Shown: piece by piece, positions 8,214 through 31,729 of the stretch
How the letters are laid out: every line of letters begins with the position of its first letter
How positions within the stretch are numbered: position 1 is the first letter of the stretch
From: Escherichia coli
GTDB lineage: Bacteria; Pseudomonadota; Gammaproteobacteria; Enterobacterales; Enterobacteriaceae
Length of the DNA: 64,000 nt
Assembly (NCBI GenBank): GCA_005400705.1
Contig: GCA_005400705.1_4079.1
Strand: one strand, 5' to 3'
Program-made: the position numbers and the translations under genes
Notes under the pieces: model-generated
Database searches by the model: none
Told to the model about the DNA's origin: nothing
What the model saw: only the letters and a program-made list of their open reading frames with translations

Positions 8214-8238
8214 GATATGGGCTTTTTTCGTTTTGGTA

Positions 8239-12742: not shown

Positions 12743-13098
12743 TGGAATTTGATTTTTTAATATCAGTACATTCTTTTAAGCACAGTTTTCAGTACTTTTG
12801 TAATTTAAACAAAGGTGATTTAATGCACAGTGCGAATGAGTATATTCATTTTACTGATGGTAAATTCTCATTTATTGATTACAGTTCATTAGATTTTCCA
12901 TACACTGATATGCCGGACTATACATTGATGGATGCTGGTGAACTATTTCAAGCTGCATTAGTATTTGACAAGAAGTACATCTGTACATTTGAAGAAGTAA
13001 TTACTATACAAAATGAAATGAAGGTGTATGCATCGTTGAATAAACCTAATGAATGTATTAATCAAGAATACAAATTCAATATAGGAATTCCAAAATGA
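12739..13098 (+). CDS. family B protein (subfamily B1)
   Basis: Core DAGELFQAALVFDKKYICTFEE; ATGA overlap. Confidence 0.7.
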   Translation: MMEFDFLISVHSFKHSFQYFCNLNKGDLMHSANEYIHFTDGKFSFIDYSSLDFPYTDMPDYTLMDAGELFQAALVFDKKYICTFEEVITIQNEMKVYASLNKPNECINQEYKFNIGIPK

Positions 13099-13454
13099 CA
13101 TATGATTATTCTATGTACTATTATAAGTTACCTAAAGGATGGGACTTGTGCTGTAATCTTATTAAGGGAGACTCGGAACATGAGTTGAGTTTATATATGC
13201 ACTACAAAGATTCTTGTTTTAAATTTATTCATGTATTACATGATGGCTATGACTATGAATCTGAGAGTCTTATAGATTATACAGTACTGGACGATGGTGA
13301 ACTATTTCAGGAAGCATTAGTGTTTGATAAGAATAAGTACTCCTGTACATTTGAAGAAATGGTTTCTTTGCAAAATGAAATGAAGAGATTTGAAAAAGAA
13401 AACGTATTTAATCCATCCCCATCAAGAACGAATAATTATTATTTCAATATATGA
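13095..13454 (+). CDS. family B protein (subfamily B1)
   Basis: Core DDGELFQEALVFDKNKYSCTFEE; ATGA overlap. Confidence 0.7.
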   Translation: MTYDYSMYYYKLPKGWDLCCNLIKGDSEHELSLYMHYKDSCFKFIHVLHDGYDYESESLIDYTVLDDGELFQEALVFDKNKYSCTFEEMVSLQNEMKRFEKENVFNPSPSRTNNYYFNI

Positions 13455-13463
13455 GATTATAAA

Positions 13464-13958
13464 ATGACATTACAGAGTTCATTGGAAAAAGCAAAGAAGA
13501 TTCATGAGTACATGAATATGGCAAAAGAAGGTTCAGTTTACGGTGTTTTCAAAGACACAAGTACTCAATATTATGTGCCGGATAACCTCCTTTATAATGA
13601 CTGCTCAGATACAGAAACGTGCGTACTGGATACAGAAACGTGCATACTAGATACCGACCCTAATGATTATGAATGTTTCATTGATATGCATAATGAGTAC
13701 ATGGTCTATATTAATGATGCAGATATTACCATATACAGTACTGACTGCGATTCCGATGACATTATAATTCCGAGTGAAGTACTAGAAGGTCAGTGGGATA
13801 GTGAAGAGTATTACTTCCAACAAAGTACTGTTTACGATGATGAAGTACTTGAAGTATTAGTTATTATGTGGTACTTTAAAAGTATTGGTTCTGGGAACTT
13901 CTATTTCGATTACAGATACGTAACGAAAACTGTAGATAACGGTATTAACAGGGGTTGA
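13464..13958 (+). CDS. family B protein (subfamily B2)
   Basis: N-terminus MTLQSSLEKAKKIHEYM; core WDSEEYYFQQSTVYDDEVLEVLVIMWYFKS. Confidence 0.7.
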   Translation: MTLQSSLEKAKKIHEYMNMAKEGSVYGVFKDTSTQYYVPDNLLYNDCSDTETCVLDTETCILDTDPNDYECFIDMHNEYMVYINDADITIYSTDCDSDDIIIPSEVLEGQWDSEEYYFQQSTVYDDEVLEVLVIMWYFKSIGSGNFYFDYRYVTKTVDNGINRG

Positions 13959-13959
13959 A

Positions 13960-14430
13960 ATGAGTTTAGAAAGAGCATTAGAGATTGCGAAGTTAATTGA
14001 TTTATGCAGCAAAGAAATTGTATCAAATTGTCTCAATGGATATCTATTCAAGGAAGGTAAATCATATTGTCGAATGATATACGATGACAGTAGTGAATAT
14101 ATCCATATGTATGAAGAAAACTTAGATGATTCTGACATAGTACTCACAGGATGTGATGTTAATTTGGAAGATAATTACATGTACTTCTGCCGTGATGCTG
14201 ATATTTTAATCCAAGATTCATTAATTCAAACAGGTGCACCAGAGGTATATCTTCCGTATTCAGTACTGGATAATAACTGGGGTAGTGAAGATTACTATTT
14301 CCAGCAGAGTACTATATATAATGAAGATATACTTGACAAACTTGTTATTTCTTGGTACTTTCATAACACGGATTATAGTAGCTTCTACATAGACTTGGAT
14401 CTACTAAGAGTACTTAAAGAGGATATATGA
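13960..14430 (+). CDS. family B protein (subfamily B2)
   Basis: N-terminus MSLERALEIAK; core EDYYFQQSTIYNED. Confidence 0.7.
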   Translation: MSLERALEIAKLIDLCSKEIVSNCLNGYLFKEGKSYCRMIYDDSSEYIHMYEENLDDSDIVLTGCDVNLEDNYMYFCRDADILIQDSLIQTGAPEVYLPYSVLDNNWGSEDYYFQQSTIYNEDILDKLVISWYFHNTDYSSFYIDLDLLRVLKEDI

Positions 14431-14867
14431 GTTTAGAAAAAGCACTAGAACTAGCCAACAAAATACATCAGTACCATGATAAAATAAAAAGTGGGTTCTA
14501 TGCTGATAAAGTACATGCATATGGGAATGAATATTACCTCACTGGAGTAAAGAGATACTCTAATGATATTTTACTTATGGGTCATGATAAAGACAATAAT
14601 ATACAGTACTCTTCATGTAGTCAATATACTAGTTTTATGGTATATATTCCTGGTACTAAGATTACTTTTGACACATCAAATACACCTGTTGACTTCGGAG
14701 TACTTGATGGCCCGTGGGGTACTGAAGAGTATTACTTCCAACAGAGTCTCATTTTTAACCAAGAAATGCTTGATTCCTTGGTTGTGTTGTGGTACTTTAA
14801 GGAATTGAATTTTGAACCATTCTTTCTTGACTGGGGATCATGTGAGTATTTAATTTCAGGGGAATAA
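14427..14867 (+). CDS. family B protein (subfamily B2)
   Basis: N-terminus MSLEKALELANK; core EEYYFQQSLIFNQE. Confidence 0.7.
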   Translation: MSLEKALELANKIHQYHDKIKSGFYADKVHAYGNEYYLTGVKRYSNDILLMGHDKDNNIQYSSCSQYTSFMVYIPGTKITFDTSNTPVDFGVLDGPWGTEEYYFQQSLIFNQEMLDSLVVLWYFKELNFEPFFLDWGSCEYLISGE

Positions 14868-14869
14868 TA

Positions 14870-15358
14870 ATGTCATTACAAAGTGCATTGAAAGAAGCAA
14901 AGAAAATTCATGAGTACATGATTATGGTACAGGAAGGTTCAGTACCAGGTGTATACAAAACATCAGATACGGAATTCTTCGTTAAGGATAGAGATGATTA
15001 TGACGAATCAGAGGTATGTGCAGAAACATTAGTACTGCACACTGATACTGGTGACAGTGATAACTGTGAATATCATATGTACAACCAGTACATTAGTTAT
15101 TGCCGTAATGAAGATATTACCATCTACAACACAGATAGTGATGCTGATGACACTATCATTCCTTATTCAGTACTGGAAGGTCAGTGGGATAGTGAAGAAT
15201 ATTACTTCCAGAATAGTACTATCTACAATGAAGAAGAACTGGATGTTATTGTGATTATGTGGTATTTCAAAAGTATTGACTCCAGTAGTTTCTATTTTGA
15301 TTATGAATATGTAGAGAATACAGTAGGAGAAGGTAATGTCATTACAAAGTGCTCTTGA
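14870..15358 (+). CDS. family B protein (subfamily B2)
   Basis: N-terminus MSLQSALKEAKKIHEYM; core EEYYFQNSTIYNEE. Confidence 0.7.
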   Translation: MSLQSALKEAKKIHEYMIMVQEGSVPGVYKTSDTEFFVKDRDDYDESEVCAETLVLHTDTGDSDNCEYHMYNQYISYCRNEDITIYNTDSDADDTIIPYSVLEGQWDSEEYYFQNSTIYNEEELDVIVIMWYFKSIDSSSFYFDYEYVENTVGEGNVITKCS

Positions 15359-15788
15359 AAAAGCAAAAGAACTACATGGATACTTTGAAGATATAAAGGC
15401 CGGAAAGTTCAAAGAAGTGTACAAAGCCGAGAACGGTAACTACTACAAAGATGAAATGTATAATAACTCCGTTAGTGTAAGGGTTATTCTTGGGTTGAAT
15501 TCCAATAGTCCTATATCGTTTTCTGAATACAATAGAGATGCAGAATTTATTAGTTATGTTGAAAATGGTAGCATTCGTTTTATTAATAGACAAAAACCAT
15601 TAATTTTGAATTATGAAGTACTGAATGGTCCGTGGAATAGTGAAGAGTATTACTTCCAAAACAGTACTGTATATGATGATGAAGTACTTGAAGCATTAGT
15701 TATTATGTGGTACTTCAAGAGTGTTAGCTGTCCTCGATTTTATTTGGATTTCGAAGATCTTCGTAAAGATCCAGAAGGTATAGAATGA
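15336..15788 (+). CDS. family B protein (subfamily B2)
   Basis: N-terminus MSLQSALEKAKELH; core EEYYFQNSTVYDDEVLEALVIMWYFKS. Confidence 0.7.
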   Translation: MSLQSALEKAKELHGYFEDIKAGKFKEVYKAENGNYYKDEMYNNSVSVRVILGLNSNSPISFSEYNRDAEFISYVENGSIRFINRQKPLILNYEVLNGPWNSEEYYFQNSTVYDDEVLEALVIMWYFKSVSCPRFYLDFEDLRKDPEGIE

Positions 15789-16099
15789 AAAACTTATTCA
15801 GTGTTCAGTACGTTCCTGGTGAAATTGGTTTATTGTATCTATTTGACCATGATAATTCATTATTACTAGTAGTGAAGAAATGCCAAGCTAGTTCGTTTGT
15901 TGAATACATTCACGATAGTGAATACATTCCTGATTTCCTAGAGTGTGATTATCACGATGAACATGAATCATTTATTTTTCAGGAATCACTCGTTTGGAAT
16001 AAGTCTATTAACTTCTTTACGTTAATTGAATTACAAAAGCAGGTGAAGTATCATTGGGATTACTTAATTACACAGGATTACATTGAGATAGAAATATAA
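15785..16099 (+). CDS. family B protein
   Basis: Core ESFIFQESLVWN; ATGA overlap. Confidence 0.65.
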   Translation: MKNLFSVQYVPGEIGLLYLFDHDNSLLLVVKKCQASSFVEYIHDSEYIPDFLECDYHDEHESFIFQESLVWNKSINFFTLIELQKQVKYHWDYLITQDYIEIEI

Positions 16100-16407
16100 T
16101 GACTAAAAATGAATTTGATTCACTTTGTACGGTTTATAATTCATTGACAGAAATACCTGACTTTATTAATTACATTTCAGCTTTAAATCAAATTATGCAT
16201 AGTTTTGAACAATCGTTTGAAGAGAAATATGCAGGTAGAAAAGTTCTATGTCATATGTCAATGTACTTGGGAGATGGTGAGCCTTACACTACCAGTACTA
16301 CATGTGAAATAAAAAAATATAATATATTATTGGGGACAATAGAATTCAAGGTATCCAATGGTGGTAGTTATATGTACTTTAGAGATGGAGTGGTTGAATT
16401 ATTATGA
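16099..16407 (+). CDS. family D-like small protein
   Basis: Motif EEKYAGRKVLCHMSMY; tiling ORF. Confidence 0.55.
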   Translation: MTKNEFDSLCTVYNSLTEIPDFINYISALNQIMHSFEQSFEEKYAGRKVLCHMSMYLGDGEPYTTSTTCEIKKYNILLGTIEFKVSNGGSYMYFRDGVVELL

Positions 16408-16853
16408 GTTACGAAAGTGCAATCAAGAAAGCAAATGATATTCTAAAAGTTGTTAAGTTCTTCAAAGAAAATCCTGAATACTTAGCTGATGAAAACCATG
16501 ATCACGATGAGAGATTGAGACGAAAAATTGTTTCTTTATTTGACACTAATGCAGATAATTATAGTCTAATTGAGTTAGCATACGATTATATTTCATTGAA
16601 CCGAAACGGAAATTTAGTTAATATAGAAAGACATGAGAGTGAAGAATCTTTTAAAATTTCAGACATTTTATCCCTGAGTACTGAAGAAGGGTACTTCCAG
16701 GGTAGTACTGTTTATGAACAAGGAACACTTGACAATCTATGCACATTCAGTGTAATATATCAGAAATCAGTACTGGATGTATTTTATCTTGACACTGCTG
16801 AACTGGATACACTAACCAATTTTGTTACTACTGAAGAGGCCACATTCGAGTGA
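16404..16853 (+). CDS. family B protein
   Basis: Core EEGYFQGSTVYE. Confidence 0.65.
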   Translation: MSYESAIKKANDILKVVKFFKENPEYLADENHDHDERLRRKIVSLFDTNADNYSLIELAYDYISLNRNGNLVNIERHESEESFKISDILSLSTEEGYFQGSTVYEQGTLDNLCTFSVIYQKSVLDVFYLDTAELDTLTNFVTTEEATFE

Positions 16854-17386
16854 TGAAAGTTAACATCAATGACTTTGATGCATTACAAGATTTATCAAAA
16901 AAGATTCGTATCATCGTACCAGTACTAAAAAAATGCAGTACTGGTTTAATTGATCCTAGTACTGTTGTTAATGAGAAGTACAATTTTCATCGTGTATTAC
17001 AGGGTACAGGTGCATTTCAGAAGTGTGATGTACGTGAGAAACACGTAATTGATACATCATTGTTTTCTATTGGTGCACCTGTGTCGAATAATTCTATTTT
17101 CTTGGATAACGCAGGAAATATTCAACAATTAACATTTAAGAAAAGGAAAAAGAACAATAACATTGGTGTGTACGCGATGAAGTGGGGGCAACCTGATTTG
17201 AAGCGTGAAATTCACATCCCTAAGTACAATTACAATGCATTTGACGAACAGTGTTTTCAACTATCGTGTACTGACCCTGACTATGCAATCATTCAGTTCT
17301 ATATGGAATTGCAGATAGCATTTAATAGTAATTTGTATATTAACTTATTGGCGATGAACATCGATGAAGTATTCAAAAACATTTAA
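16850..17386 (+). CDS. family B protein
   Basis: Core DEQCFQLSCTD. Confidence 0.6.
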   Translation: MMKVNINDFDALQDLSKKIRIIVPVLKKCSTGLIDPSTVVNEKYNFHRVLQGTGAFQKCDVREKHVIDTSLFSIGAPVSNNSIFLDNAGNIQQLTFKKRKKNNNIGVYAMKWGQPDLKREIHIPKYNYNAFDEQCFQLSCTDPDYAIIQFYMELQIAFNSNLYINLLAMNIDEVFKNI

Positions 17387-17582
17387 TCGAATTGAATACA
17401 TGAGAACTGTGAGTGCAGTGTGGGATATATGGTTCACTACTAAACCAAAAATGGATTACCATGACTTTAAGCTATTGTTCTTCATTGGCTCTAACAAACA
17501 GGATGTTGCAATGAAGGGTTATATTCAGCACTTACAGGAACTAATACAGAAGAGGGTTAATGAAAATAATAGACCAAGATGA
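17364..17582 (+). CDS. family A-like small protein
   Basis: Motif FIGSNKQDVA; start could instead be ATG 17400. Confidence 0.5.
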   Translation: MKYSKTFNRIEYMRTVSAVWDIWFTTKPKMDYHDFKLLFFIGSNKQDVAMKGYIQHLQELIQKRVNENNRPR

Positions 17583-17751
17583 TATTGCTAAACTATTCAA
17601 TATATATTCTACTAGAATGATGCAAACAGACTCATATAGTACTGAATTCAAAGAGTTGAAAGTACTGATGTACTTGGGAACCCAATATCAGGAACAAGTT
17701 ATTTTGGAATATATTAATTCGTTGAAGAAGGATATCCGTTATGTACGATGA
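17560..17751 (+). CDS. family A small protein
   Basis: Motif YLGTQYQEQV; isolated inside the B array. Confidence 0.6.
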   Translation: MKIIDQDDIAKLFNIYSTRMMQTDSYSTEFKELKVLMYLGTQYQEQVILEYINSLKKDIRYVR

Positions 17752-18301
17752 TTTAGATCTTGCGTTTGAACGTATGGTAATTTTAATGCAATGTGCAGAA
17801 ATGCATGAAACAATCCGTCGCACCAAAGGGATTGAATATACAAGTAAACTATTCTCATACGAAAGTCGTCGAGGGATGGATCATTTTTACTGCACTGATT
17901 GTTCAAAGTTTTCAGTACTGAAATATTATCATCCTACTGTTTCCAATAATAGTTTAATATCCACATATGATGGTGATCTGTTTAGTGTAATGTATGACAC
18001 ATTACATCCATCAATTTCAATCTATAAAGATTGCGATAGTAGTTTATCGTATATAATTGAAGATTACTTATCTCCTAATACTGAAGAGAATATTTTTCAG
18101 AACAGTGTGTTGCATGATGAATTAAGTATAAAATGCATCTATATGTTCAATAAGTTAAAAGAGTACGCCGATAATAATTACTTCATTGATGATTTAGCGG
18201 TATTGTCTGTTTCCGTTTTTAATACAAATGATATTGATATGAAATACTATAATGAGATTTGTAAAGTACATCATATGTATAAGGAACTATTATGTCAATA
18301 A
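17741..18301 (+). CDS. family B protein
   Basis: Core EENIFQNSVLHD. Confidence 0.65.
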   Translation: MYDDLDLAFERMVILMQCAEMHETIRRTKGIEYTSKLFSYESRRGMDHFYCTDCSKFSVLKYYHPTVSNNSLISTYDGDLFSVMYDTLHPSISIYKDCDSSLSYIIEDYLSPNTEENIFQNSVLHDELSIKCIYMFNKLKEYADNNYFIDDLAVLSVSVFNTNDIDMKYYNEICKVHHMYKELLCQ

Positions 18302-18894
18302 ATGCAAATAAATGTTGTAGTGCAAATGTGCATTTGTTTTTTAAGAAATTAGCAAATGATATTATATATATGCAGGAAATGATTTATCACAAACGAGCGG
18401 ATTTAGAAAAAGCATTAGTACAGTTCTCATTTATGCTTGATGGTGATATATTTCTAGAGAGTGATGCATTGCGAATAGTATTAGACAAAAATGCTAAAAG
18501 ATTTTTATTTCATATAGATAATAAATTATGTTCCTCCGTATGTCGTACTTTTTATAATCGTGATTCGGACTTATATCAATTCCTTTATTCCAAAGGTGCA
18601 GTAGAAGCATCATATGGTGATGGTTATGCCCTAGGAAAGAGTATTCCATTTATGAAATCATTTAAAATAGAACACATCAGTACTGATGAAGATGCAATGT
18701 TCACAAATGATATAACTATGGGACGTGAAGATGCAATGCGATATATTACAAATTCTATGCATACATTCTTTCAACGAACAGAATTTGATAATGTATATAT
18801 ATCAAATGTAAATATTTTCAATGACCTGTGTCAGTACTTGAGAAGTGTTTGTGACTTCGATGAAAGTTATTGTAAGCTATACACTGAGGTATAA
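18292..18894 (+). CDS. hypothetical protein (degenerate family B-like)
   Basis: 200-aa tiling ORF; weak core DAMFTNDIT. Confidence 0.5.
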   Translation: MSINANKCCSANVHLFFKKLANDIIYMQEMIYHKRADLEKALVQFSFMLDGDIFLESDALRIVLDKNAKRFLFHIDNKLCSSVCRTFYNRDSDLYQFLYSKGAVEASYGDGYALGKSIPFMKSFKIEHISTDEDAMFTNDITMGREDAMRYITNSMHTFFQRTEFDNVYISNVNIFNDLCQYLRSVCDFDESYCKLYTEV

Positions 18895-18899
18895 AACAA

Positions 18900-19262
18900 A
18901 TGAACACATTAAGTATTACATACTATACAACTAAAAAATTAGTTACTTGTTTAATATCTTTGAAGACAAACCATGATGATATGTTTGATATGGCTGCATA
19001 TGAATTAGAATTATCAGAAGATGGCTTCAAGAGCTATGAATTATATAGCTATGTCCGTGAAGATGTAATTGACACTACACTAATGCAAGAGGATGAGTTA
19101 TTCCAAGAAAGTTTAGTATGGGATAATAAGTACGATTGTAACTTTGATTTCTTATGTTTAATCCAGAAAGAAATGAAAAGAATCTTTGATAATTATCCAA
19201 TCAAACGTTTCAGTACTGCACCTGAGCAATATAAAAGGATTATATTCACCTATGAAGATTGA
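18900..19262 (+). CDS. family B protein
   Basis: Core EDELFQESLVWDNKY. Confidence 0.65.
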   Translation: MNTLSITYYTTKKLVTCLISLKTNHDDMFDMAAYELELSEDGFKSYELYSYVREDVIDTTLMQEDELFQESLVWDNKYDCNFDFLCLIQKEMKRIFDNYPIKRFSTAPEQYKRIIFTYED

Positions 19263-19629
19263 ATTTGAAGTTATTACATATAGTATAGGTGATGGTATCC
19301 GTTGCTATGTACAAGCAAGGCATATGGTTCCTGATGATAAACTGTCACCCAAAAGCTTCTGTATCACACAAGATCTCTTAGATATCAACGGAGAGTACAA
19401 GTACATATATTATCTTACTAAGGGTTATTGTAGTACACGTGGTTTTAATATTGTAGCTGTTTCTAGAGATGAAATTGATGATTTAACTGAGTACGGGGAA
19501 GAAGAGATGTTCCAGTACAGTACTGTTTTTAATGAACTGGATGTGTTTCTGTTACGAAAAATACAACACATTATGCAAAAATGTTTGCATCATAAGAGAG
19601 GTATTGTATGCGACGTGAATCTGAATTAG
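19252..19629 (+). CDS. family B protein
   Basis: ATG 19252 overlapping upstream end; core EEEMFQYSTVFN. Confidence 0.6.
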   Translation: MKIEFEVITYSIGDGIRCYVQARHMVPDDKLSPKSFCITQDLLDINGEYKYIYYLTKGYCSTRGFNIVAVSRDEIDDLTEYGEEEMFQYSTVFNELDVFLLRKIQHIMQKCLHHKRGIVCDVNLN

Positions 19630-19949
19630 TTAAAGTAATGTACGCTACTCATATTAAACTACTACTTGTTAAATTTGATTATAATAAAAAACATAATGAT
19701 TTCTATACTTTAATTCGTGATGAAAATACATTCTCCTTGCGATGCAACAATATACCCTTGAAGATAAATGATTTTACTTCACTTGACGAGGGGGAATTAT
19801 TTCAAGAATCATTAGTTTTTAATAGTAATATAAAAATTGATATAGAAGTTATTAAAAAATACCAGATTCTATTGAACAAAATTATGAATTGTTATCCATG
19901 TGAAATAGGTGGTCATATGCAGTTCAAATCAAAAATGTATGAATTATGA
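19608..19949 (+). CDS. family B protein
   Basis: Core EGELFQESLVFN. Confidence 0.65.
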   Translation: MRRESELVKVMYATHIKLLLVKFDYNKKHNDFYTLIRDENTFSLRCNNIPLKINDFTSLDEGELFQESLVFNSNIKIDIEVIKKYQILLNKIMNCYPCEIGGHMQFKSKMYEL

Positions 19950-19956
19950 GGTTTAT

Positions 19957-20493
19957 ATGTTAGATAAAAAAATGAACTCTGGAACCCAATATAATCATCT
20001 TAAGTTGGATACATTCGAATCAGCTATCAGTACAGCACAAGATATAATTGATATTATCAAGTTCATTAAAGAAGATAAGTTCAAATGTTTGAAAATACTA
20101 AATCGTTCAATGTACCGTGATAAAAATATTCATGTATCAGTACGTAGACCGAAAGATCAAGAAAGTGGGAGAGATTTCTATAACAACAGTGAGCAGTTCG
20201 AATGTGAATATGATCCAGAATTTAGAGGTGGTTTCATGTGTTACTGTATGAAGGATACCTCACACATTGAGATACGTTCATCGAAAGGTGGCATACGTAC
20301 ATTAGAGTTTATTGATATAGTTTTAAATCAGGAATACTACTTTCAACTATCATTATTGTTTCCTGCATACGATTTAGGAGTTCTATTCATGTATAAGTAC
20401 TTTTATGAGCACTGGAATGAAGACTTCTATCTGGACTTAGAAGATTACCAATTAGTTTGGAAAGAAATGGTAAAACTTCGCAACCCATCTTGA
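19957..20493 (+). CDS. family B protein
   Basis: ATG 19957 with GAGG upstream; core NQEYYFQLSLLF. Confidence 0.6.
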   Translation: MLDKKMNSGTQYNHLKLDTFESAISTAQDIIDIIKFIKEDKFKCLKILNRSMYRDKNIHVSVRRPKDQESGRDFYNNSEQFECEYDPEFRGGFMCYCMKDTSHIEIRSSKGGIRTLEFIDIVLNQEYYFQLSLLFPAYDLGVLFMYKYFYEHWNEDFYLDLEDYQLVWKEMVKLRNPS

Positions 20494-20519
20494 CACCCTC
20501 CGATTCTTTGTGATATAAT
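20490..20519 (+). promoter_or_regulatory. sigma70-like promoter with extended -10 (TTGACA-18-TGATATAAT)
   Basis: -35 TTGACA 20490-20495, -10 TATAAT 20514-20519 preceded by TGA; the box forms the 5' arm of a 9-bp inverted repeat GTGATATAA / TTATATCAC whose 3' arm abuts ATG 20553. Confidence 0.65.
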
Positions 20520-20552
20520 CTCTTTATATTAATTGTAAAGGGTTATATCACA

Positions 20553-21035
20553 ATGTCCAAAGACCTATCATTTAGCAATGCACAAAAAATCGCACAAAAT
20601 ATCATTAAACTTCATAAGTTCCTTTTAACAGTTAAAGAGAATATAATTCTCCCACGATGCACACTTTATGCGTACAAAAATTATTTGTCAATGAATAGCA
20701 ATTTGTTGCATACTACAGATGAGAATTTCTGTGGTATTCGTGTACTTGACGATGCACCAACAGGGGATTTTATCTCATATTGTTTCCATACATCTGATAG
20801 TTTTAAGTACTATCATCCTAGATTTAATGATGATGAATATGAATATGACACATTTAATGTTAGATCAGAAGAAGAATTCTTCCAGTACAGTACTTTGTAC
20901 AATGAGAGAATCGTGTTTAGTTCTACAATTTTTACAGTACTTAAAGATGAACTCAATGACGCAGATGATAGATTCTATATGGATTTAAACTTCGTAGATG
21001 AAATCATTGAGTACATGGAGAAAAATGGTCTATGA
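20553..21035 (+). CDS. family B protein
   Basis: Core EEEFFQYSTLYN; downstream of promoter. Confidence 0.65.
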   Translation: MSKDLSFSNAQKIAQNIIKLHKFLLTVKENIILPRCTLYAYKNYLSMNSNLLHTTDENFCGIRVLDDAPTGDFISYCFHTSDSFKYYHPRFNDDEYEYDTFNVRSEEEFFQYSTLYNERIVFSSTIFTVLKDELNDADDRFYMDLNFVDEIIEYMEKNGL

Positions 21036-21514
21036 TTACAACAGAATATGATTACGATGGTGTTTTAGAATTTGCATCTAACATTCATCGCATTGCAAAG
21101 GAGTTCAGAAGTCCCCAACCTTTCGGTGGAATGCCTTTTGGTGGAATGTTCCAATATGACCAATTCAGTTCAACCAAAGGAAGACTTGCCTTTAAAAATA
21201 ATAAGGGCAATCAAGTATATGCTGAGTTCTTTGACGATAATGACTTTCACTACAGAGCTGAATATATTTCATATTGTCAAGGGTCTGATTTGAAGATTAA
21301 CATTGATACATTTAGAGATTCAGTGTTTATCCCTTATAGTGAGTTAGTTTTCATGACAGAAGAAATGTACTTCCAAGGGTCTTGTATTCATGATGCAAAA
21401 GTACTTAATGCTATATTACTTTATGGTGCACTACTTCATCATTACAAATACAAACAACGATTCTTTATAGATTTAGTTGTATACCATCAATGCGTGGATT
21501 ATTTGAATGCATAA
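21032..21514 (+). CDS. family B protein
   Basis: Core EEMYFQGSCIHD; ATGA overlap. Confidence 0.65.
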   Translation: MITTEYDYDGVLEFASNIHRIAKEFRSPQPFGGMPFGGMFQYDQFSSTKGRLAFKNNKGNQVYAEFFDDNDFHYRAEYISYCQGSDLKINIDTFRDSVFIPYSELVFMTEEMYFQGSCIHDAKVLNAILLYGALLHHYKYKQRFFIDLVVYHQCVDYLNA

Positions 21515-21869
21515 TACAACAACAATTCAGTACATGACGGATGGCAATGATTGCTTTGCTTCAAGATATGAATTCATCAAGAACCATTTCGTAACCTATA
21601 TCCCTGAATATAATCAGTTTTATCTACAGATTTACCAAAATGATTCATATATGAATGAGATATATTCTGAAATAAAAATCCCTGATTATAGTACTTTATC
21701 AGAAGAGGAATTGTTTCAGGAGAGCACTGTCAATACTGAAGATGTGTACGAACTAATGGAATACCAGAAGGTACTTAAATATTTCCATGAAGTTCAGGAT
21801 ATACAAATGGATAGTGTTAAAACGTGGAATTATAACACATACGAGGTAAATTATGTTCGAAATGATTAA
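21507..21869 (+). CDS. family B protein
   Basis: Core EEELFQESTVN. Confidence 0.65.
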   Translation: MHNTTTIQYMTDGNDCFASRYEFIKNHFVTYIPEYNQFYLQIYQNDSYMNEIYSEIKIPDYSTLSEEELFQESTVNTEDVYELMEYQKVLKYFHEVQDIQMDSVKTWNYNTYEVNYVRND

Positions 21870-22266
21870 AATTATGCAACGATGCATTGTTGACCAACAT
21901 GGAATATATGGATATAGTTTAAGTGCAGCTATTGACAAAAACAAAACAACCTATGTAAGATATAATGCAGTACTTGGATTTGATATATTCATTGATGCTA
22001 ACAATAAAATCAAACAAGCTAAGGATGTGTCTATAATGACCCCTGACGAGTTATTTCAGTACAGCTTAGTTCTGCCCACCTGTATTGATTTACAACGCCT
22101 AGGAGCTATACAGAAGGTTTTACGCGAACATAAAGTACAACCAAATAAAATTACACACATCCCAGAAACATTCTACAAACCAATAGAAGTAGAAACACCT
22201 GATTATATGTTAAGTGATGATGAGTTCTACAAGAAACACTTCCCTGGTAAAGTTTGGAGAGAATAA
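21853..22266 (+). CDS. family B protein
   Basis: Core PDELFQYSLVL. Confidence 0.65.
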   Translation: MFEMIKIMQRCIVDQHGIYGYSLSAAIDKNKTTYVRYNAVLGFDIFIDANNKIKQAKDVSIMTPDELFQYSLVLPTCIDLQRLGAIQKVLREHKVQPNKITHIPETFYKPIEVETPDYMLSDDEFYKKHFPGKVWRE

Positions 22267-22748
22267 TGAACAGAAAGTACAGAGAAACTATGAAGTTCGC
22301 TAAGGAGTGTTTAGAGACAGTTGATTTCATTTTCGATAACAAAGACTCATTGGGTCGCCACTTCGTAATTACAAAGAAAGAAGATAAGAGATACAAATGT
22401 CAACGATTAGGATACAGTATTGAGTTCTCCTTAATGATTGACGGAATGATAAACTCCTTATATGAATGTGGTAAGACTGATTACATTTCATTTAGATCAT
22501 GGAGTGAAGGTATCATGTTCTTGAGAACAAATGGAGTTATATATCCTTTTATTGATGATTTATCAGAAGAAAGTTACTTTCAAAATACTTTAATTTACAC
22601 AGAAAAAGAACTCAAGATGCTATTCATTATGTCGTACTTTAAAAAGTACTGCAAATTTAAATCATTAGCTTTTGAGATTTCTGCAATGAAAGTATTCATT
22701 AAAAATGTAAAAGAATTAAAGAGGATTTACGATGTACATAGAAAATGA
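22266..22748 (+). CDS. family B protein
   Basis: ATG 22266 in TAATG overlap with upstream stop; core EESYFQNTLIY. Confidence 0.6.
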   Translation: MNRKYRETMKFAKECLETVDFIFDNKDSLGRHFVITKKEDKRYKCQRLGYSIEFSLMIDGMINSLYECGKTDYISFRSWSEGIMFLRTNGVIYPFIDDLSEESYFQNTLIYTEKELKMLFIMSYFKKYCKFKSLAFEISAMKVFIKNVKELKRIYDVHRK

Positions 22749-23274
22749 TAATGTAAAATGCATTACTGACATTTGTATAAAATTAATGAAAATTTTCATT
22801 AACCCAAAATACAAGACTCGTTCTTTACGTCATAACATTGATGATCATTGTGTAATTACTATTCTAGGTAGTATGCTTGATGTAAAATACGATGGTAAAT
22901 TGTTATTCGGTGTCCGAGAAGAGAAGATAGATGATGCATTCTTTTCCTGTAAAGATAAATTTGAACCTTCTGATTATAAAGTAATTATTCGTGATGATAG
23001 CATCTACATTAGTAGTGATTATTCAAATTACTTCGATAAAATATACACTGAAAACGTTGACTACCATTATGAAATGATAGATTTACCAGTAACAGACATT
23101 GATATGGAGAGAATCAAATTTTCATTATCAGATAATGAGTACTTAGGTATACAAACATATTATTCACTACAAGGAAAGATTCCACCTGCTATGTATATAA
23201 GGATTGAGATTGGTAATGTATTCAATGATAAGGTTATATCAATTGCTGATAAAATATTGAGGGTTGAATTATGA
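22732..23274 (+). CDS. hypothetical protein (degenerate family B-like)
   Basis: 180-aa tiling ORF; no clean FQ core. Confidence 0.5.
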   Translation: MYIENDNVKCITDICIKLMKIFINPKYKTRSLRHNIDDHCVITILGSMLDVKYDGKLLFGVREEKIDDAFFSCKDKFEPSDYKVIIRDDSIYISSDYSNYFDKIYTENVDYHYEMIDLPVTDIDMERIKFSLSDNEYLGIQTYYSLQGKIPPAMYIRIEIGNVFNDKVISIADKILRVEL

Positions 23275-23834
23275 ATATCAATGATTACCAATTTCATAGG
23301 CTTGAATTTCGTCATTGTGTTGCATTTGCAAAAACATTGATGTGCATCATTGACACTCTTTCATCCAAACAATTTCGTAAGGATAATGATTTATTTCTGA
23401 AAAAAGGTCGTGTAACATCAACTGATATCGGTATTGAACTATTTGTTGATATCAGTGTTGATACCGGAGACAGTACAAGGGTTGGTTGTATAGGTCATAT
23501 TGGTACACATTGCTTCACATGGAATCCAAATACAAGTCAAGTGCGAATTGATTATAGAAATTCACGTTGGGTTGATCTTAGTACTGAATCAGATTTAGAA
23601 TCAGCTATGTTCCAGCTAAGTTTAATTCATAATCCTAATGAACTTCTTTACATTATTACTTTCAGTTATCTGTTACAAAACTACGATAATCCATCAGGGT
23701 TTTTCATGGAATCGGATATAGAAGAAATTATGGCAGTGTTTCCTAGTTTAAAGGATATTCTGGAAGAAAAAGATTTCTATGAAGACTTCAGAGATTTATA
23801 CGACATGCACTTGGAGTTATTTAAGAATGGATAA
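23271..23834 (+). CDS. family B protein
   Basis: Core ESAMFQLSLIHN; ATGA overlap. Confidence 0.65.
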   Translation: MNINDYQFHRLEFRHCVAFAKTLMCIIDTLSSKQFRKDNDLFLKKGRVTSTDIGIELFVDISVDTGDSTRVGCIGHIGTHCFTWNPNTSQVRIDYRNSRWVDLSTESDLESAMFQLSLIHNPNELLYIITFSYLLQNYDNPSGFFMESDIEEIMAVFPSLKDILEEKDFYEDFRDLYDMHLELFKNG

Positions 23835-24345
23835 AGATGATATTCTAATTAGACTAATTAATAGTTTAATAAAGTTCTCAAATAATGATGTCGATACATA
23901 CAAAGTAGGGGATATTGAATTTAAATCATTTGGTATGTACGGTGAGGATAAAACATATTATGCGTCAATGAAATTTCAAGATTTTCACGAGATGTTAATA
24001 TCGTTATCATATGAAGATGTTGATCCAAGATGGAGTTCCAGTATTTCACTATCGAGAATGGTAATTCGTAGTAAGCATCGTTATATTTCGTCAAAGAATA
24101 CTCCTAACTTGATTAATATTGTGTTGAATGAAAATACAAATCCCCTATCTAAACATGATATCGTACCGTTAACCGATGAAGTTCTTTTTCAATTGAGTAC
24201 CATTTGTGATGAAGATGTGATATCATGTATGAAAATTTATGAGAAGGTTGGGAGTGATATTCCCATGAACTATTACCTAACTATAGATGGAACGTACCTT
24301 CGAGATGAGGTTCTAGCGTACATTGACAGTGTTTTACCAAAATAA
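23827..24345 (+). CDS. family B protein
   Basis: ATG 23827 overlapping upstream stop; core DEVLFQLSTICD. Confidence 0.6.
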   Translation: MDKDDILIRLINSLIKFSNNDVDTYKVGDIEFKSFGMYGEDKTYYASMKFQDFHEMLISLSYEDVDPRWSSSISLSRMVIRSKHRYISSKNTPNLINIVLNENTNPLSKHDIVPLTDEVLFQLSTICDEDVISCMKIYEKVGSDIPMNYYLTIDGTYLRDEVLAYIDSVLPK

Positions 24346-24367
24346 AGACCCGTATGGGTCTTTTTGT
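24345..24367 (+). terminator. rho-independent terminator
   Basis: Hairpin GACCC-GTAT-GGGTC followed by TTTTT. Confidence 0.75.
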
Positions 24368-24376
24368 GTTTATGGC

Positions 24377-24405
24377 TTTACAAGAGCATTCAGGTGTGTT
24401 ATACT
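24377..24405 (+). promoter_or_regulatory. sigma70-like promoter (TTTACA-17-TATACT, TG-extended)
   Basis: -35 TTTACA 24377-24382, -10 TATACT 24400-24405 with TG at 24397-24398; sits between terminator and RBS GGAGGA 24423-24428. Confidence 0.55.
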
Positions 24406-24432
24406 TGATTTTAAATAGAGTTGGAGGAATCT

Positions 24433-24999
24433 ATGAGTACTGAATTAATTAAAGAAGTCACATTACTTCTGAAGCATTGTTTTAAGTTCATTCCTGATAC
24501 TGGTTCCCGCCAGTACATTAAAGTCAATGAGAAATATAACATCAATATCCTTGCATCCGAAACTGCAAGCAGTTATGCTAACATTGAGTTGGATTCTGAA
24601 GAAAAATATACAGTATTACAAATCATATCAGATGTACAACGTAAACAAGATTATCGTTCTTCATTTTACAACGATCATCTGTGTGTTTGCTCAAACTTCA
24701 GTGAGAATAAAATTGTGTATACGAATTTATACACACATGAAGTGATTGATACATATAATTATAAAATTTCATCTGATGAATACAATGTTCTAATGTTCAA
24801 CGCAAACCTTTTGTATGATGCCAGTACTGTACGCTGTTTAGAGTTAGCATATAAAATTCCAAAGATCATGGAAAGAAAAGATTTGATTCACTTTAAAACT
24901 ATTTTAAAATACAGTACAAAAGAATTAGAGGATTTAGTACAGGCTCTTAAGAATTTCATTAATGAACATGTACCTGTTAAATTCGAGGATGCACAATGA
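24433..24999 (+). CDS. hypothetical protein (degenerate family B-like)
   Basis: ATG 24433 after GGAGGA; weak core VLMFNANLLYD. Confidence 0.55.
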   Translation: MSTELIKEVTLLLKHCFKFIPDTGSRQYIKVNEKYNINILASETASSYANIELDSEEKYTVLQIISDVQRKQDYRSSFYNDHLCVCSNFSENKIVYTNLYTHEVIDTYNYKISSDEYNVLMFNANLLYDASTVRCLELAYKIPKIMERKDLIHFKTILKYSTKELEDLVQALKNFINEHVPVKFEDAQ

Positions 25000-25580
25000 A
25001 CCATATCAGAACTAAAATTTTGAGACTCATGCATGACATTGCAGAACTTTCAGAGATTCATGACATTACGGAAATTGTTGAATTTGATAATTATCGACTG
25101 AAAATTGAAAACAAATCCAAACATCGTTTTGGTTCAGTTCAGTTGGATGTATATAAAACTTATGAATTTTCTAAAAAAATTAAAAGTTCATGGGATACGA
25201 TTACTATGTACATTCGCACATCCAGAAATCGTGAACGTATTGGTTCTATTTCTTATAATATGGTATTTGCGAATGCATTACATGAAAAAATGAATAAAAT
25301 TGTAGAATCTAATTTCAGTGAAGATGATGGTTTTATTGGTTTGGAAGTTCCACCAGAATTAGACCAAAGTGAAGATATTCGAGATGCATTCATTTTCCAG
25401 AAATCATTGTTGGACAATTACAAAGAATTCGAGTACTTAATGCTTTGTTACGATACTGCAAAAGTTCTTGATTGTGGTGAACTAGTTATGTACAATGATT
25501 TTATCAATTGCAAGACTGATGTTCTGAATACACTACTTCAAAATATAGAATCTGTTAAGGAAAAATATGAACGCTTATAG
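24996..25580 (+). CDS. family B protein
   Basis: Core RDAFIFQKSLLD; ATGA overlap. Confidence 0.65.
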   Translation: MNHIRTKILRLMHDIAELSEIHDITEIVEFDNYRLKIENKSKHRFGSVQLDVYKTYEFSKKIKSSWDTITMYIRTSRNRERIGSISYNMVFANALHEKMNKIVESNFSEDDGFIGLEVPPELDQSEDIRDAFIFQKSLLDNYKEFEYLMLCYDTAKVLDCGELVMYNDFINCKTDVLNTLLQNIESVKEKYERL

Positions 25581-26145
25581 TTATATGACAGAACGCCATC
25601 AGTTATTATATGATATCAGTAAAAAAATGCTATCAATTGTTGGTAGTGCGAAAGAAATTGAAAAACAATCTCTCATCCGTGATGTAGCAATTTCATCTAA
25701 ATGTTGGTCAAATGAATATTACGACCACGGTATTCTTACTATTTCTGGGGCCAGAAATATTTGTATTGTAAAAAATAAAAGTAAAAGTAATGAAGAGTGT
25801 GAGATTAGAACCGATATACAAATTAAGGATGATGGAAGTTTTTCACATCACCCATTCCATATTAGTACTGTTGGTGTTTTATATAATATTAAAGTTCTAT
25901 TCGGTGATGAAGAGTATGTGTTAAAAGCTATCAATCCAGATTCAAGTACAGTTGAAGAAGAACTGTTCCAGATGAGCACTGTTATACCTGAAGAGGTTCT
26001 TAGTACTGTTATTTTTTGTAGTTTAATTTATCATGAATACAAAAAGAACCAGTTCGATTTCCACATGTTAGGAACGTACATCTTCAATAATTTGAATGTA
26101 GATCGTTTAAAAGCATTAAATTCAGCAATGGATAAGGTGCTATAA
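25567..26145 (+). CDS. family B protein
   Basis: Core EEELFQMSTVI. Confidence 0.65.
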   Translation: MNAYSYMTERHQLLYDISKKMLSIVGSAKEIEKQSLIRDVAISSKCWSNEYYDHGILTISGARNICIVKNKSKSNEECEIRTDIQIKDDGSFSHHPFHISTVGVLYNIKVLFGDEEYVLKAINPDSSTVEEELFQMSTVIPEEVLSTVIFCSLIYHEYKKNQFDFHMLGTYIFNNLNVDRLKALNSAMDKVL

Positions 26146-26573
26146 TGACAAGAGATGATTGTTTGTACATATGGGATATAATTGAAACTACACTTTCAAA
26201 TCCAGAAAATTATAAAACACAAAAAAGACAACGACACAAAACATGGATAGATTTGTTCGTTGAGGACATACACGCAGTGACTATTTGGGATTCACCGAGG
26301 ACATCAGCATCTACTCTGTTGGACAATGAATGCATTGATTGTATTAATTCCACTTTTCATCTCCACGGTACTACAATTTTTGGTACATTTCTGGATATTG
26401 AAAGTAAAGATGATATTGATTCACTTGCGTTACAATACCAAGTACTGTATAATACTAAATTAATTTACGATTTAGTACTAGCTTCTTATGTGTATAAATT
26501 AATGATGAAATATAATCATATTTCTGTTTCAGTTTATACTAAGGATATTCTTTCATTAAGAGACAAAACATGA
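26145..26573 (+). CDS. hypothetical protein (degenerate family B-like)
   Basis: Tiling ORF; weak core LALQYQVLYN. Confidence 0.5.
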   Translation: MTRDDCLYIWDIIETTLSNPENYKTQKRQRHKTWIDLFVEDIHAVTIWDSPRTSASTLLDNECIDCINSTFHLHGTTIFGTFLDIESKDDIDSLALQYQVLYNTKLIYDLVLASYVYKLMMKYNHISVSVYTKDILSLRDKT

Positions 26574-27079
26574 GTTTATTAAATGCACGCGAATTGGTTG
26601 AGATGTATGAGATTTTGTCTTCATATAAAAATTCTCATGGAGATGTGATTCTCGACAAAAAGTTCCATGTCAGTGTTGAAAATATATCAAATATAGATAT
26701 GATTTCTTTGGTGGAAAGTAATAAGTCAGGTCTTGAACGCGATATCATGCGTTTGATTTATATTCCCAAACCATCATATACTAATGATAGTTCAATTAGT
26801 AATGAGACATTCATGTATAGTCCTGGTACGGATTCTACTATAGTATCGCTGTCCAATAAATCAATGGGTACTTTCCAATTCATCTATACCAGTACTGATA
26901 ACATTGAAGAAATTGAATTTCAAAACAATACATTAAGTCCATGTAGTAGTGTTATAACCTTTATGTCATATCTATGGTCAACTAAAACAAGTGCTGTTGT
27001 ATATAGTTCAAATTATACACAAGATAGTATTGTTGAATCATATAAAGTTCTAAAGGAATACTATGAAAATAACAAATGA
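26570..27079 (+). CDS. family B protein
   Basis: Core EEIEFQNNTLS; ATGA overlap. Confidence 0.6.
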   Translation: MSLLNARELVEMYEILSSYKNSHGDVILDKKFHVSVENISNIDMISLVESNKSGLERDIMRLIYIPKPSYTNDSSISNETFMYSPGTDSTIVSLSNKSMGTFQFIYTSTDNIEEIEFQNNTLSPCSSVITFMSYLWSTKTSAVVYSSNYTQDSIVESYKVLKEYYENNK

Positions 27080-27644
27080 TTTTATTAAAAGTGTAGTACA
27101 CCCTATGCTTAGTATTATGAAAAAAATACAGAATCTACCGGAAGATAACGATTACAAGTTTAATCGTTTTGATTCAGATGTGTTTTGTATTGAAATTGAA
27201 ATTAATAACAATCGCAATTTACATTTAAAATTCAAAGAATCGTCAAGTCCGTACTACAACTTTGATATGAATTTTAAAATAGATACTGACATTGAAGAAA
27301 ACGTAATATCAAATCATACTAGCAAAAATGGTTTTATGCATAGAACTACTATGTACAATAATAAAAATAGTATTATATCTAAATGGAATCATCAATTCAC
27401 TAAAATTTGTGAAATTGTATATAGTGATTTTGGTGAAGAGAATTACTTTCAGTTAAGTACAATTCATGAACTTCCACCGTATGATTATGTTAAAACATGG
27501 TTTGATATTCATAATATAATTGATGATGCAATCAAACTTCCATTTGGTGTGTCAATATCATATACTGCTCCTAAAACATTTGTTTTTACTGAAGATATGA
27601 TTATGAAAAAGATATGGGCAATTATCCCACTTATGATGGATTAA
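27063..27644 (+). CDS. family B protein
   Basis: Core EENYFQLSTIHE. Confidence 0.65.
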   Translation: MKITNDFIKSVVHPMLSIMKKIQNLPEDNDYKFNRFDSDVFCIEIEINNNRNLHLKFKESSSPYYNFDMNFKIDTDIEENVISNHTSKNGFMHRTTMYNNKNSIISKWNHQFTKICEIVYSDFGEENYFQLSTIHELPPYDYVKTWFDIHNIIDDAIKLPFGVSISYTAPKTFVFTEDMIMKKIWAIIPLMMD

Positions 27645-27658
27645 ATTCGTACCAGGGG

Positions 27659-27688
27659 TTGACTCTGGTATTTTTGTATGATACATTG
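27659..27688 (+). promoter_or_regulatory. possible promoter (TTGACT-18-TACATT)
   Basis: -35 TTGACT 27659-27664 and -10-like TACATT 27683-27688 in the 60-nt gap before RBS AAGGAG. Confidence 0.3.
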
Positions 27689-27705
27689 TCCTAAAGGAGA
27701 ATTTT

Positions 27706-28257
27706 ATGAACTACAATCATGATCTTTTTACATTATGTGCATCCAAATGTGTTGATGGATGGACAGATAAAATCAATACCATAATTCATCGATATCTGGT
27801 CTTTAGTTCTCGTGCACGAAGTGAGGGGGCTATGGATTTCAAATATACACTATCTATTGATGGTGTAACTATCCATGCAGACGAAGAACGTCTGAGCATT
27901 AATTTGTATGATTCCTGTGTATTTGCTATTCACCAAAAGATGGGGAAAGGATGGGGTTGTAATAACATTAACTCAAAAGCTATCTTTTGGGTTGGTCACC
28001 ACCAGACAGTACTTGATCCTTCAATCAAATCTAATCTTTTATCCGATAATATGGTTTATGATTTATTGTACTCCGAAGAACAACATTTTCAGTTAAGTAC
28101 ATTACATGATCTGGCACAGTACGAGGATTGTTACAAAACATTAGAACTATGCCATTCCCTTGAACTTAAAGATAAATTGATACAAGTTTACCCTTCATTC
28201 TTTCATGAAGAAGTACAAAGTACACTAGATCATATTTTATATGGATACGATAAATGA
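27706..28257 (+). CDS. family B protein
   Basis: RBS AAGGAG; core EEQHFQLSTLHD. Confidence 0.65.
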   Translation: MNYNHDLFTLCASKCVDGWTDKINTIIHRYLVFSSRARSEGAMDFKYTLSIDGVTIHADEERLSINLYDSCVFAIHQKMGKGWGCNNINSKAIFWVGHHQTVLDPSIKSNLLSDNMVYDLLYSEEQHFQLSTLHDLAQYEDCYKTLELCHSLELKDKLIQVYPSFFHEEVQSTLDHILYGYDK

Positions 28258-29430: not shown

Positions 29431-29439
29431 GAATGAAAT

Positions 29440-31687: not shown

Positions 31688-31729
31688 TAAAAACGCACAT
31701 GGAGTGCATTAGAAGATCAAGGATAGATC

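Follow-up and report, generated by a model that had tools for sequence, protein, structure and literature searches.

Introduction

Promoters have been predicted in jumbo phages of the clade considered here, among them Pectobacterium phage CBB and Cronobacter phage GAP32. The CBB genome paper reports 18 predicted RpoD-like promoters with UP-like elements in an early region of small open reading frames (ORFs), and a second, 'divergent' predicted promoter with the -35 region TGAAACG, which is also present in GAP32 and is located mostly before DNA-synthesis genes (PMC5259590). Table S6 of the same paper lists 18 sites of the form TGAAAC(G/A)-N13-TG(G/c/a)TATAAT under the name 'Promoter 1' (PMC5259590). 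Phage T4 offers two further comparisons. Its middle promoters combine a MotA box at -30 with a sigma70 -10 element, about half of them with TGn, and depend on sigma appropriation by AsiA/MotA (PMC2988021), and its genes e, soc, 49 and I-TevI carry hairpins that sequester the translation initiation region (PMC3014915). In this study, these systems are compared with a 64,000-nucleotide (nt) stretch of DNA filed under Escherichia coli (the window), in which the nonamer TGATATAAT recurs upstream of genes. An earlier note, made from the letters of the window, had proposed that this box marks a phage-specific promoter class whose -10 element can be sequestered by secondary structure, or a combined promoter-terminator element.

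By megablast, the window belongs to the genus Asteriusvirus (Escherichia phages 121Q, PBECO4, phAPEC6 and relatives), which comprises Rak2-like jumbo myoviruses of ~350 kb. There are 33 related records in all, with ~92% identity to relatives across 19000-23000, and the counterpart of the window in 121Q is located at roughly 157.5-221.5 kb. The G+C content is 32% and the + strand carries nearly all genes. Each site was checked for intergenic status with the help of the 121Q, UE-S1 and ph0011 annotations. Whole-genome counts were made in the complete relative EC22.5-2 (351,992 bp), and a footprint alignment was made for 11 promoter sites of the window in four relatives (121Q, EC22.5-2, UE-S1 and ph0011).

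Distribution and conservation of the motif

The motif TGATATAAT occurs 11 times in the window, ten times on the + strand and once on the - strand. Dinucleotide shuffles yield 3.85 +/- 1.9 copies for both strands together, and none of 100 shuffles reaches 11. Six of the ten + strand copies (20511, 33556, 35263, 41347, 49863 and 57567) are located in intergenic DNA, which makes up ~5% of the window, and each lies 30-45 nt 5' of a start codon bearing a Shine-Dalgarno sequence. The same six sites had been listed in the earlier note, five of them at these positions and the sixth at 41346, where 41347 is correct. That list was also incomplete, as further copies are found at 31798, 37239, 39196 and 52113 on the + strand and at 63395 on the - strand. 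The four additional + strand copies are inside coding sequence, and at 39196 and 52113 the motif is lost in one relative each, the 52113 copy being absent from UE-S1. The copy at 31798 was considered as a seventh intergenic site behind a mis-called start codon. This was rejected on the basis of third-position synonymous substitutions on both sides of the motif; the copy is 68 nt inside a real gene that has a ribosome-binding site before its ATG at 31730.

The strand bias extends to the genome scale: EC22.5-2 carries 40 + strand copies and 7 - strand copies. Both a genome-wide count and a positional enrichment had been proposed as checks of a promoter role, and both agree with it; the opposite outcome, a motif equally frequent in coding DNA, was not observed. 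The bias is also not a codon effect, because the forward motif is tolerated in one frame of + strand genes, the other two holding TGA or TAA, while its reverse complement is tolerated in all three frames and yet is present once.

The sites may be considered in terms of a common footprint, consisting of TG at -15/-14, one base, and then a TAnnnT hexamer. Across the 11-site alignment, divergence is 0.8% in the TGn/-10 element, 3.7% in the -35-like hexamer and 13.1% in the spacer; for the 20-nt flanks it is 10.5% on the upstream side and 7.4% on the downstream side. In ph0011, the sequence upstream of the 41347 and 57567 sites is unrelated, yet GGACA or AGACA, 13 diverged bases and TGATATAAT are retained. 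Two variants of the motif that had been noted earlier, TGATATAGT at 4283 and TGATATGAT at 61450, were confirmed, and each has a TTGAC(G/A) -35 box at a distance of 17 nt.

It is close to inconceivable that the motif arose by chance from AT-rich sequence or through codon usage. Four of the ten + strand copies are intragenic, which is about what composition predicts, and generic sigma70 hexamer pairs are no more frequent in the window than in shuffles (103-119 sites per 20 kb versus 113-123); among such pairs, only those with TGn on the + strand stand out. Against this, no shuffle reaches the observed count, the strand bias is 10:1, six copies are confined to ~5% of the sequence, and the boxes are conserved around a drifting spacer. 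The shuffle counts, the strand counts in EC22.5-2 and the footprint divergence led us to reject a chance or codon origin. Since the box and its -35-like partner are conserved in relatives while the spacer drifts, the TGATATAAT boxes are read as extended -10 (TGn + TATAAT) elements of phage promoters, a reading with which the intergenic enrichment, strand bias and fixed distance to the start codon all agree. Promoters of this kind would be used by host core RNA polymerase.

Two promoter architectures

The window mixes two promoter architectures. Class A is of the canonical sigma70 type with the consensus TTGAC(A/T)-N17(+/-1)-TGnTAnnnT, and class B is specific to the clade with the consensus (T/G)G(G/A)GAC(A/G)-N13-TG(A/c)TATAAT. 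When EC22.5-2 is anchored on TGnTAnnnT, TTGAC peaks at N15 (26 sites on the + strand and 0 on the - strand), which is equivalent to the canonical 17-nt spacer. With the same anchor, GGACA peaks at N13 (13 on the + strand and 0 on the - strand) with five additional sites at N14. Class A sites of EC22.5-2 have variable -10 hexamers (TATTAT, TATAGT, TATCAT and others) and cluster in small-ORF regions. Class B sites almost always have TG(A/c)TATAAT, are spread over 96-343 kb, and their upstream box accompanies most of the intergenic exact nonamers. That most exact nonamers belong to class B explains why the exact nonamer recurs, rather than merely TGnTATAAT.

In the window, class A is represented by the sites at 20511 (TTGACA, 18 nt), 4283, 8259, 24397, 27679 and 61450. 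Clear class B sites are found at 41347 (GGGACA) and 57567 (TGGACA), and class-B-like sites at 35263 (GAGACA), 49863 (GAGACG) and 33556 (TGAACA). Those that are discussed no further as hairpin-associated elements are as follows.

4263-4291, + strand: canonical-type promoter TTGACG-N17-TATAGT with TGA; a variant of the earlier note, compared in relatives.
8201-8267, + strand: intrinsic terminator (8201-8222) and T-run, followed by the promoter TTGACA-N17-TATCAT with TGT.
24344-24405, + strand: terminator (24344-24363), followed by the promoter TTTACA-N17-TATACT with TGT.
61430-61458, + strand: promoter TTGACA-N17-TATGAT with TGA, in a divergent intergenic region; the other variant of the earlier note.
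41328-41355, + strand: promoter GGGACA-N13-TGATATAAT, 5' of a gene starting at ~41396; kept in ph0011, where the upstream gene is replaced.
49844-49871, + strand: promoter GAGACG-N13-TGATATAAT, 5' of a gene starting at ~49903-49909.
57548-57575, + strand: promoter TGGACA-N13-TGATATAAT, 5' of the ClpP-like gene 57610-58305; kept in ph0011.

From Pfam and PHROGs searches, the ClpP-like protease is the sole functional assignment among genes downstream of the promoters. Two of the intragenic motif copies also have a class-B-like box, TGGACG at N13 before TGATATAAT in 31779-31806 and GGGACA at N14 before TGATATAAT in 52093-52121, and could be internal promoters.

The window runs from very small hypothetical ORFs through arrays of 160-190-amino acid (aa) paralogues to genes of nucleic-acid metabolism (methyltransferase, RNA ligase, polynucleotide kinase, DNA ligase, ClpP-like proteases and dCMP deaminase), and is the early/middle gene region of a 121Q/PBECO4-like, Rak2-like jumbo coliphage. 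Class A sites (20490-20519, 4263, 8239, 24377, 27659 and 61430), found in a region of small early-type ORFs, resemble both the T4 early promoters with their 'uber' UP/-35/TGn/-10 organization and the RpoD-like promoters of CBB (Table S5) in having a TTGACA-like -35 box, a spacer of 17+/-1 nt, TGn and TAnnnT, although the -10 hexamers are more variable than those of T4 early promoters. Class A probably represents early promoters. Class B is most likely a middle-type class. Like the T4 middle promoters, its members join a host-type (extended) -10 element to a phage-specific box in place of the -35 element and precede nucleic-acid-metabolism genes; however, the MotA box (a/t)(a/t)(a/t)TGCTTtA centred at -30 is absent from class B, where the upstream box is GGGACA-like.

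Inverted repeats and the hairpin at 20508-20553

It had been proposed that inverted repeats around the box sequester the -10 element as a property of the class. The repeats were tested by fixing each box and shuffling its flanks. At 20511, where a 9-bp repeat at 20510/20542 had been noted, the repeat is real and had been understated, as an 11-bp perfect repeat joins 20508-20518 with 20543-20553 (P about 0.003). It is the only site beyond chance in this test. For four of the six intergenic nonamers of the window the repeat does not exceed chance; the GGTGAT/ATCACC pair at 49861/49880, for example, is present as described but has a P of 0.44 and a 3' arm that is not conserved, and the remaining sites rank lower still. 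Among 28 promoter-like sites of EC22.5-2 with a nearby downstream start codon, strong structure between the -10 box and the start was found only at the orthologue of 20511 (z -6), the next-best case (z -3.2) being a promoter followed by a terminator. Hairpin embedding as a class property was rejected from the flank-shuffle test and this fold scan.

The elements of the 20511 site are as follows.

20490-20495, + strand: -35 hexamer TTGACA, with an 18-nt spacer to 20511; conserved in 12 Asteriusvirus genomes.
20511-20519, + strand: extended -10 box TGATATAAT with its hexamer at 20514-20519; predicted start A20526, 7 nt past the hexamer.
20508-20553, + strand: read-through RNA hairpin of ~20 bp; 5' arm 20508-20528, loop 20529-20533, 3' arm 20534-20553.

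RNA spanning 20500-20560 is predicted to fold at -22.1 kcal/mol (z -7.4, with none of 200 shuffles as good). A lower stem pairs 20508-20520 with 20541-20553, T20521 is bulged, and an upper stem pairs 20522-20528 with 20534-20540. The 5' arm holds the -10 box. In the 3' arm, the complete Shine-Dalgarno sequence AAAGGG (20537-20542) is paired, and so is the first base of the start codon, A20553. In 12 genomes the structure is retained, with folding energies of -16 to -21 kcal/mol. The predicted +1 position, A20526, is at the apex of the hairpin, and RNA that begins there folds at only -2.8 kcal/mol.

The -35 hexamer overlaps the TGA stop codon of the upstream gene (20491-20493), and a terminator scan of 20001-20553 found no terminator-like site between that gene and the hairpin. 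For these two reasons, transcripts from upstream should carry the full hairpin. In such read-through RNA, the Shine-Dalgarno sequence and AUG of gene 20553-21035 would be buried, and only transcripts from the internal promoter would be translatable. As a probable consequence of the hairpin, the next gene is translated only when it is transcribed from its own promoter. The gated gene encodes a 160-aa protein (phrog_12674) with no assigned function. It belongs to a long array of paralogous genes of 150-200 aa at ~13000-31700, which are likewise functionally unassigned (phrog_12674, phrog_9317 and phrog_28549).

The arrangement is a good candidate, by analogy, for a new example of the known T4-style mechanism, for which McPheeters et al. 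(1986) is reportedly the precedent of a translation-initiation hairpin. As in T4 e, soc, 49 and I-TevI, RNA initiated upstream has its Shine-Dalgarno sequence and start codon in base pairs, and the promoter is located in the DNA coding for the hairpin's 5' strand such that its own transcripts lack this strand and are open. The two differ in the internal promoter, which is of the sigma70 type (TTGACA/TGATATAAT) here and a late TATAAATA promoter in T4.

Masking of the -10 box by a DNA cruciform or hairpin, or by RNA structure, with a resulting switch in promoter activity, is most improbable. The box does fall within or between the arms of an inverted repeat at 20511 and 33556. Nonetheless, only one of the 28 sites in the complete relative genome has significant structure from -10 to start, and four of the six intergenic nonamers lack a repeat better than chance. 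Even at 20511, the partner arm occludes the ribosome-binding site and not the promoter; in the other case it is associated with a U-run, and both point to effects on translation or termination at the RNA level. Moreover, a DNA promoter cannot be hidden by RNA structure. It makes more sense that the inverted repeats do not sequester promoters and that the real ones act on transcripts arriving from upstream.

Terminator-promoter units

Hairpins with a T-run accompany several of the promoters in three different arrangements. In addition to the tandem units at 8201-8267 and 24344-24405 given above, these are as follows.

27649-27687, + strand: terminator hairpin (27649-27671) with the -35 box TTGACT (27659-27664) in its loop and 3' arm, and TGATACATT at 27679-27687.
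33534-33580, + strand: terminator-like hairpin bracketing a promoter; arms 33534-33543 and 33563-33572, T-run 33574-33580.
35242-35271, + strand: promoter CTGAGACA-N13-TGATATAAT, whose box overlaps the stop codon of gene 34391-35245; in four relatives the boxes are conserved and the spacer diverges.
35274-35307, + strand: hairpin AAGGTGAC...GTCACCTT and T-run, 3 nt past the -10 box; the predicted 35263 start is inside the 5' arm.

A combined promoter-terminator element had been suggested as the alternative function of the motif. This applies to some sites, with overlap of the two elements at 33534-33580 and 27649-27687, tandem order at 8201-8267 and 24344-24405, and the promoter first at 35242-35307. 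It does not apply to 41347, 49863 and 57567, which have no terminator. The arrangement at 8201, 24344, 27649 and 33534 resembles the compact intergenic terminator/promoter pairs of phages, in which a hairpin and U-run are upstream of a promoter or overlap it. Unlike the usual pairs, promoter elements are inside the hairpin at 27649 and 33534, and the order is reversed at 35242-35307.

The hairpin that had been reported at 33535-33571 is real, with 10-bp arms and a T7 run, and is kept in relatives. Its 5' arm contains the -35-like TGAACA (33537-33542), TGATATAAT (33556-33564) spans the loop and the first part of the 3' arm, and the same arm contains the predicted start site at ~33569-33571. The hairpin and U-run would terminate upstream transcripts, and transcripts of the internal promoter, which starts beyond, would escape. 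In ph0011, two stem pairs are changed to G.U and the loop-closing pair is lost, with the T-run conserved. Because these stem changes become G.U, a role as an RNA terminator for upstream transcripts is favored.

The repeats at 20508/20543 and 33534/33563 may alternatively be operators for a dimeric phage DNA-binding repressor. The arms are perfect over 10-11 bp, overlap a -35 or -10 box, and are conserved. This explanation is nevertheless very unlikely, given that the two repeats share nothing outside of the promoter box and that their centre-to-centre distance of 29-35 bp is unusual for operators. Both changed pairs in ph0011 become G.U, by which RNA pairing is kept and DNA symmetry is not, and the 20511 repeat continues as a second helix in which the Shine-Dalgarno sequence is paired, as expected of an RNA structure and not of an operator. 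Hairpins that act on RNA from upstream remain the preferred explanation.

At 35274-35307, the upper stem covaries (AACAT/ATGTT, AGTA/TACT and AGCA/TGTT) and the hairpin probably terminates transcripts of the upstream gene. Judged from its layout, a promoter followed by a hairpin could insulate from upstream transcripts while attenuating its own. The same layout is observed at 322366-322430 of EC22.5-2, where a terminator-type hairpin and U-run are located <=3 nt past the -10 box. EC22.5-2 also repeats the module with TTGACT inside a terminator hairpin (aaaaagggaTTGACTCCGGTCAGTCCCTTTGCTATTAT) six times, at 40058, 43532, 46799, 49551, 340684 and 346766; this fused terminator-promoter module occurs every ~3.3 kb within the poorly coding part at 30-50 kb.

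A large structured RNA downstream of the 35263 promoter

The promoter at 35263 precedes a segment that contains no credible ORF.

35308-35812, + strand: ~500-nt structured non-coding RNA, presumably transcribed from the 35263 promoter, identified by conservation and covariation.

Across Asteriusvirus, the identity of the segment is 97-100%; this includes ph0011, with ~86% identity in coding DNA. With blastn, it was found at 66-75% identity in jumbo phages of Salmonella, Klebsiella, Erwinia, Serratia, Yersinia, Xanthomonas, Cronobacter and Pectobacterium. Genomes of the Rak2-like clade hold it in 4-5 paralogous places; in EC22.5-2 the copies are located at 89968-90496, 143396-143925, 223202-223675 and 333270-333721, and three of them are directly preceded by TGATATAAT promoters. 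An RNAalifold analysis of 19 copies predicted 85 pairs, 46 of which show compensatory changes, including those of long-range helices. In UE-S1 (about 2480-2540, aligned to ~35399-35453 of the window), a 55-nt module of the RNA (CAGAAGAAACCCGT...GCGGCT) is duplicated in tandem. A change from TGG/CCA to GGG/CCC between the window and UE-S1 keeps the helix.

A pattern of the RNA core was absent from 185,579 bacterial and archaeal genomes. In IMG/VR and metagenomes it was found mainly on large, jumbo-phage-sized contigs, plus some short fragments. The RNA resembles nothing in Rfam 15 and has no tRNA match, in agreement with tRNA and Rfam searches of the whole window that gave no match, and a literature search found no paper that describes it. 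From its conservation and predicted fold, the RNA probably represents an undescribed large structured RNA family that is specific to Rak2-like jumbo phages. Possible roles are a primer RNA at multiple replication origins, or a ribonucleoprotein (RNP) or scaffold RNA.

Class B promoters and a factor that may read them

Class B shares with 'Promoter 1' of CBB and GAP32, phages of the same clade, a box of 6-7 nt, a 13-nt spacer and a nearly invariant TGnTATAAT, and both are located outside of the small-ORF early region. Promoters of this type also precede the orthologous RNA genes of Yersinia, Serratia and Cronobacter phages and of Asteriusvirus. The upstream box differs, mainly at position 4, being (T/G)G(G/A)GACA in Asteriusvirus and TG(A/G)AAC(G/A) in CBB/GAP32, and the middle base of TGn is A in Asteriusvirus compared to mostly G in 'Promoter 1'. 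Upstream of the RNA orthologues, TGGAAC(A/G) or TGAAACG occurs with TGGTATAAT in phages of Yersinia, Serratia and Cronobacter and in some metagenomic relatives, and (T/G)G(G/A)GACA occurs with TGATATAAT in Asteriusvirus-like genomes. The box therefore varies by phage genus, as does the middle base of TGn, which is not read, and the hosts are all Enterobacterales. From this comparison, class B is the Asteriusvirus version of 'Promoter 1' and a genus-specific variant. In a literature search, no description of Asteriusvirus promoters or non-coding RNAs was found, and the RaK2 genome paper has no text on promoters.

The earlier suggestion of a phage-specific class is thus plausible for most of the exact nonamers, which combine a non-sigma70 (T/G)GGACA box at N13 with an A in TGn that does not vary; across phage genera with one host family, these two features differ. 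The class A sites are of the host type. A candidate reader of class B is an RpoD-like sigma factor of the phage. A tblastn search with regions 2-4 of E. coli RpoD missed it, a false negative, and a query with CBB_513 finds the homologue of the CBB_513/GAP32 factor at 332205-333170 of EC22.5-2 (35% identity, E 1e-64). The gene is downstream of canonical TTGACA-N17-TATAAT promoters. It is also immediately 5' of RNA copy 4 with its TGATATAAT promoter.

Class B may be read by this phage sigma factor, or by sigma70 through its contact with TGn/-10. In the first case, which we favor, there would be a cascade, with class A read by host sigma70, production of the phage sigma factor, and class B read thereafter. 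The mechanism may accordingly differ from that of T4, being sigma replacement in a clade that has an RpoD-like sigma factor instead of sigma appropriation. A tblastn search with T4 AsiA against EC22.5-2 gave no convincing homologue (best E 0.86). The fuller proposal is that the exact nonamer marks the regulon of the CBB_513 homologue, with a bipartite TGGRACA-N13-TGnTATAAT element that co-evolves with phage genus and the ~500-nt RNA as its most conserved cargo. We put this forward tentatively, at somewhat less than an even chance.

A serious rival is that there is a single class of host sigma70 early promoters in which (T/G)GGACA is a degenerate -35 box and no phage factor is involved, since TGn/-10 promoters need no -35 element (PMC2988021). 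The sequence GACA corresponds to positions 3-6 of TTGACA, and there is classic compensation between the elements, the strongest -10 boxes being paired with the weakest -35 boxes and the reverse. In the related phage PA5oct, start sites identified by RNA-seq are flanked by TTGAC/TATAATA motifs and host RNA polymerase is relied upon. Several features do not fit. Where sigma70 has its greatest preference for T, at two positions of the box, there is a strong preference for G, and this in a genome with 66% A+T. The spacing is fixed, with 13 sites at N13, five at N14 and none on the other strand. Almost no variation is seen at the 'n' of TGn, a base not read by sigma70, and both this base and the box are different in phage genera with a common host family. 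Lastly, an RpoD-like sigma gene is conserved in the clade. Reading by sigma70 alone is a real possibility that falls short of even.

Significance

The best overall explanation, two promoter architectures together with hairpins that act on upstream transcripts, is held with good confidence. Some points weigh against it. The TGAACA, GAGACA and GAGACG sites match the class B box only in part. A perfect TGnTATAAT is by itself an excellent sigma70 site, and class B could consist of sigma70 promoters with a weak -35 box. The 20511 hairpin is nearly invariant in the 12 genomes, without a clean compensatory change and with an A.A mismatch in four, and its conservation is explained in part because it contains the -10 box and ribosome-binding site. 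At 33534, the 19-nt loop and AU-rich stem of the hairpin are atypical for an intrinsic terminator, and the site failed a simple terminator scan. For Asteriusvirus, the timing, sigma dependence and start positions of the promoters, and the effects ascribed to the hairpins, are inferred from sequence throughout; a literature search found no transcriptome for any member of the genus.

With these points in mind, the motif is real and functional, and represents in Asteriusvirus a promoter type for which predictions exist from related genera, used alongside ordinary sigma70-type promoters. The practical value of this study is a curated map of promoters and terminators for the unannotated early/middle region of 121Q-like phages, which are therapeutic candidates, and in which a host-type promoter class is told apart from a clade-specific one. 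The 20508-20553 hairpin is predicted to be a clean case of promoter-in-hairpin translational gating outside of T4. The structured RNA is comparable in kind to ROOL, GOLLD and OLE, and may matter more than the promoters. If the phage sigma factor reads class B, these promoters would define the early-to-middle switch of the Rak2-like jumbo phages.

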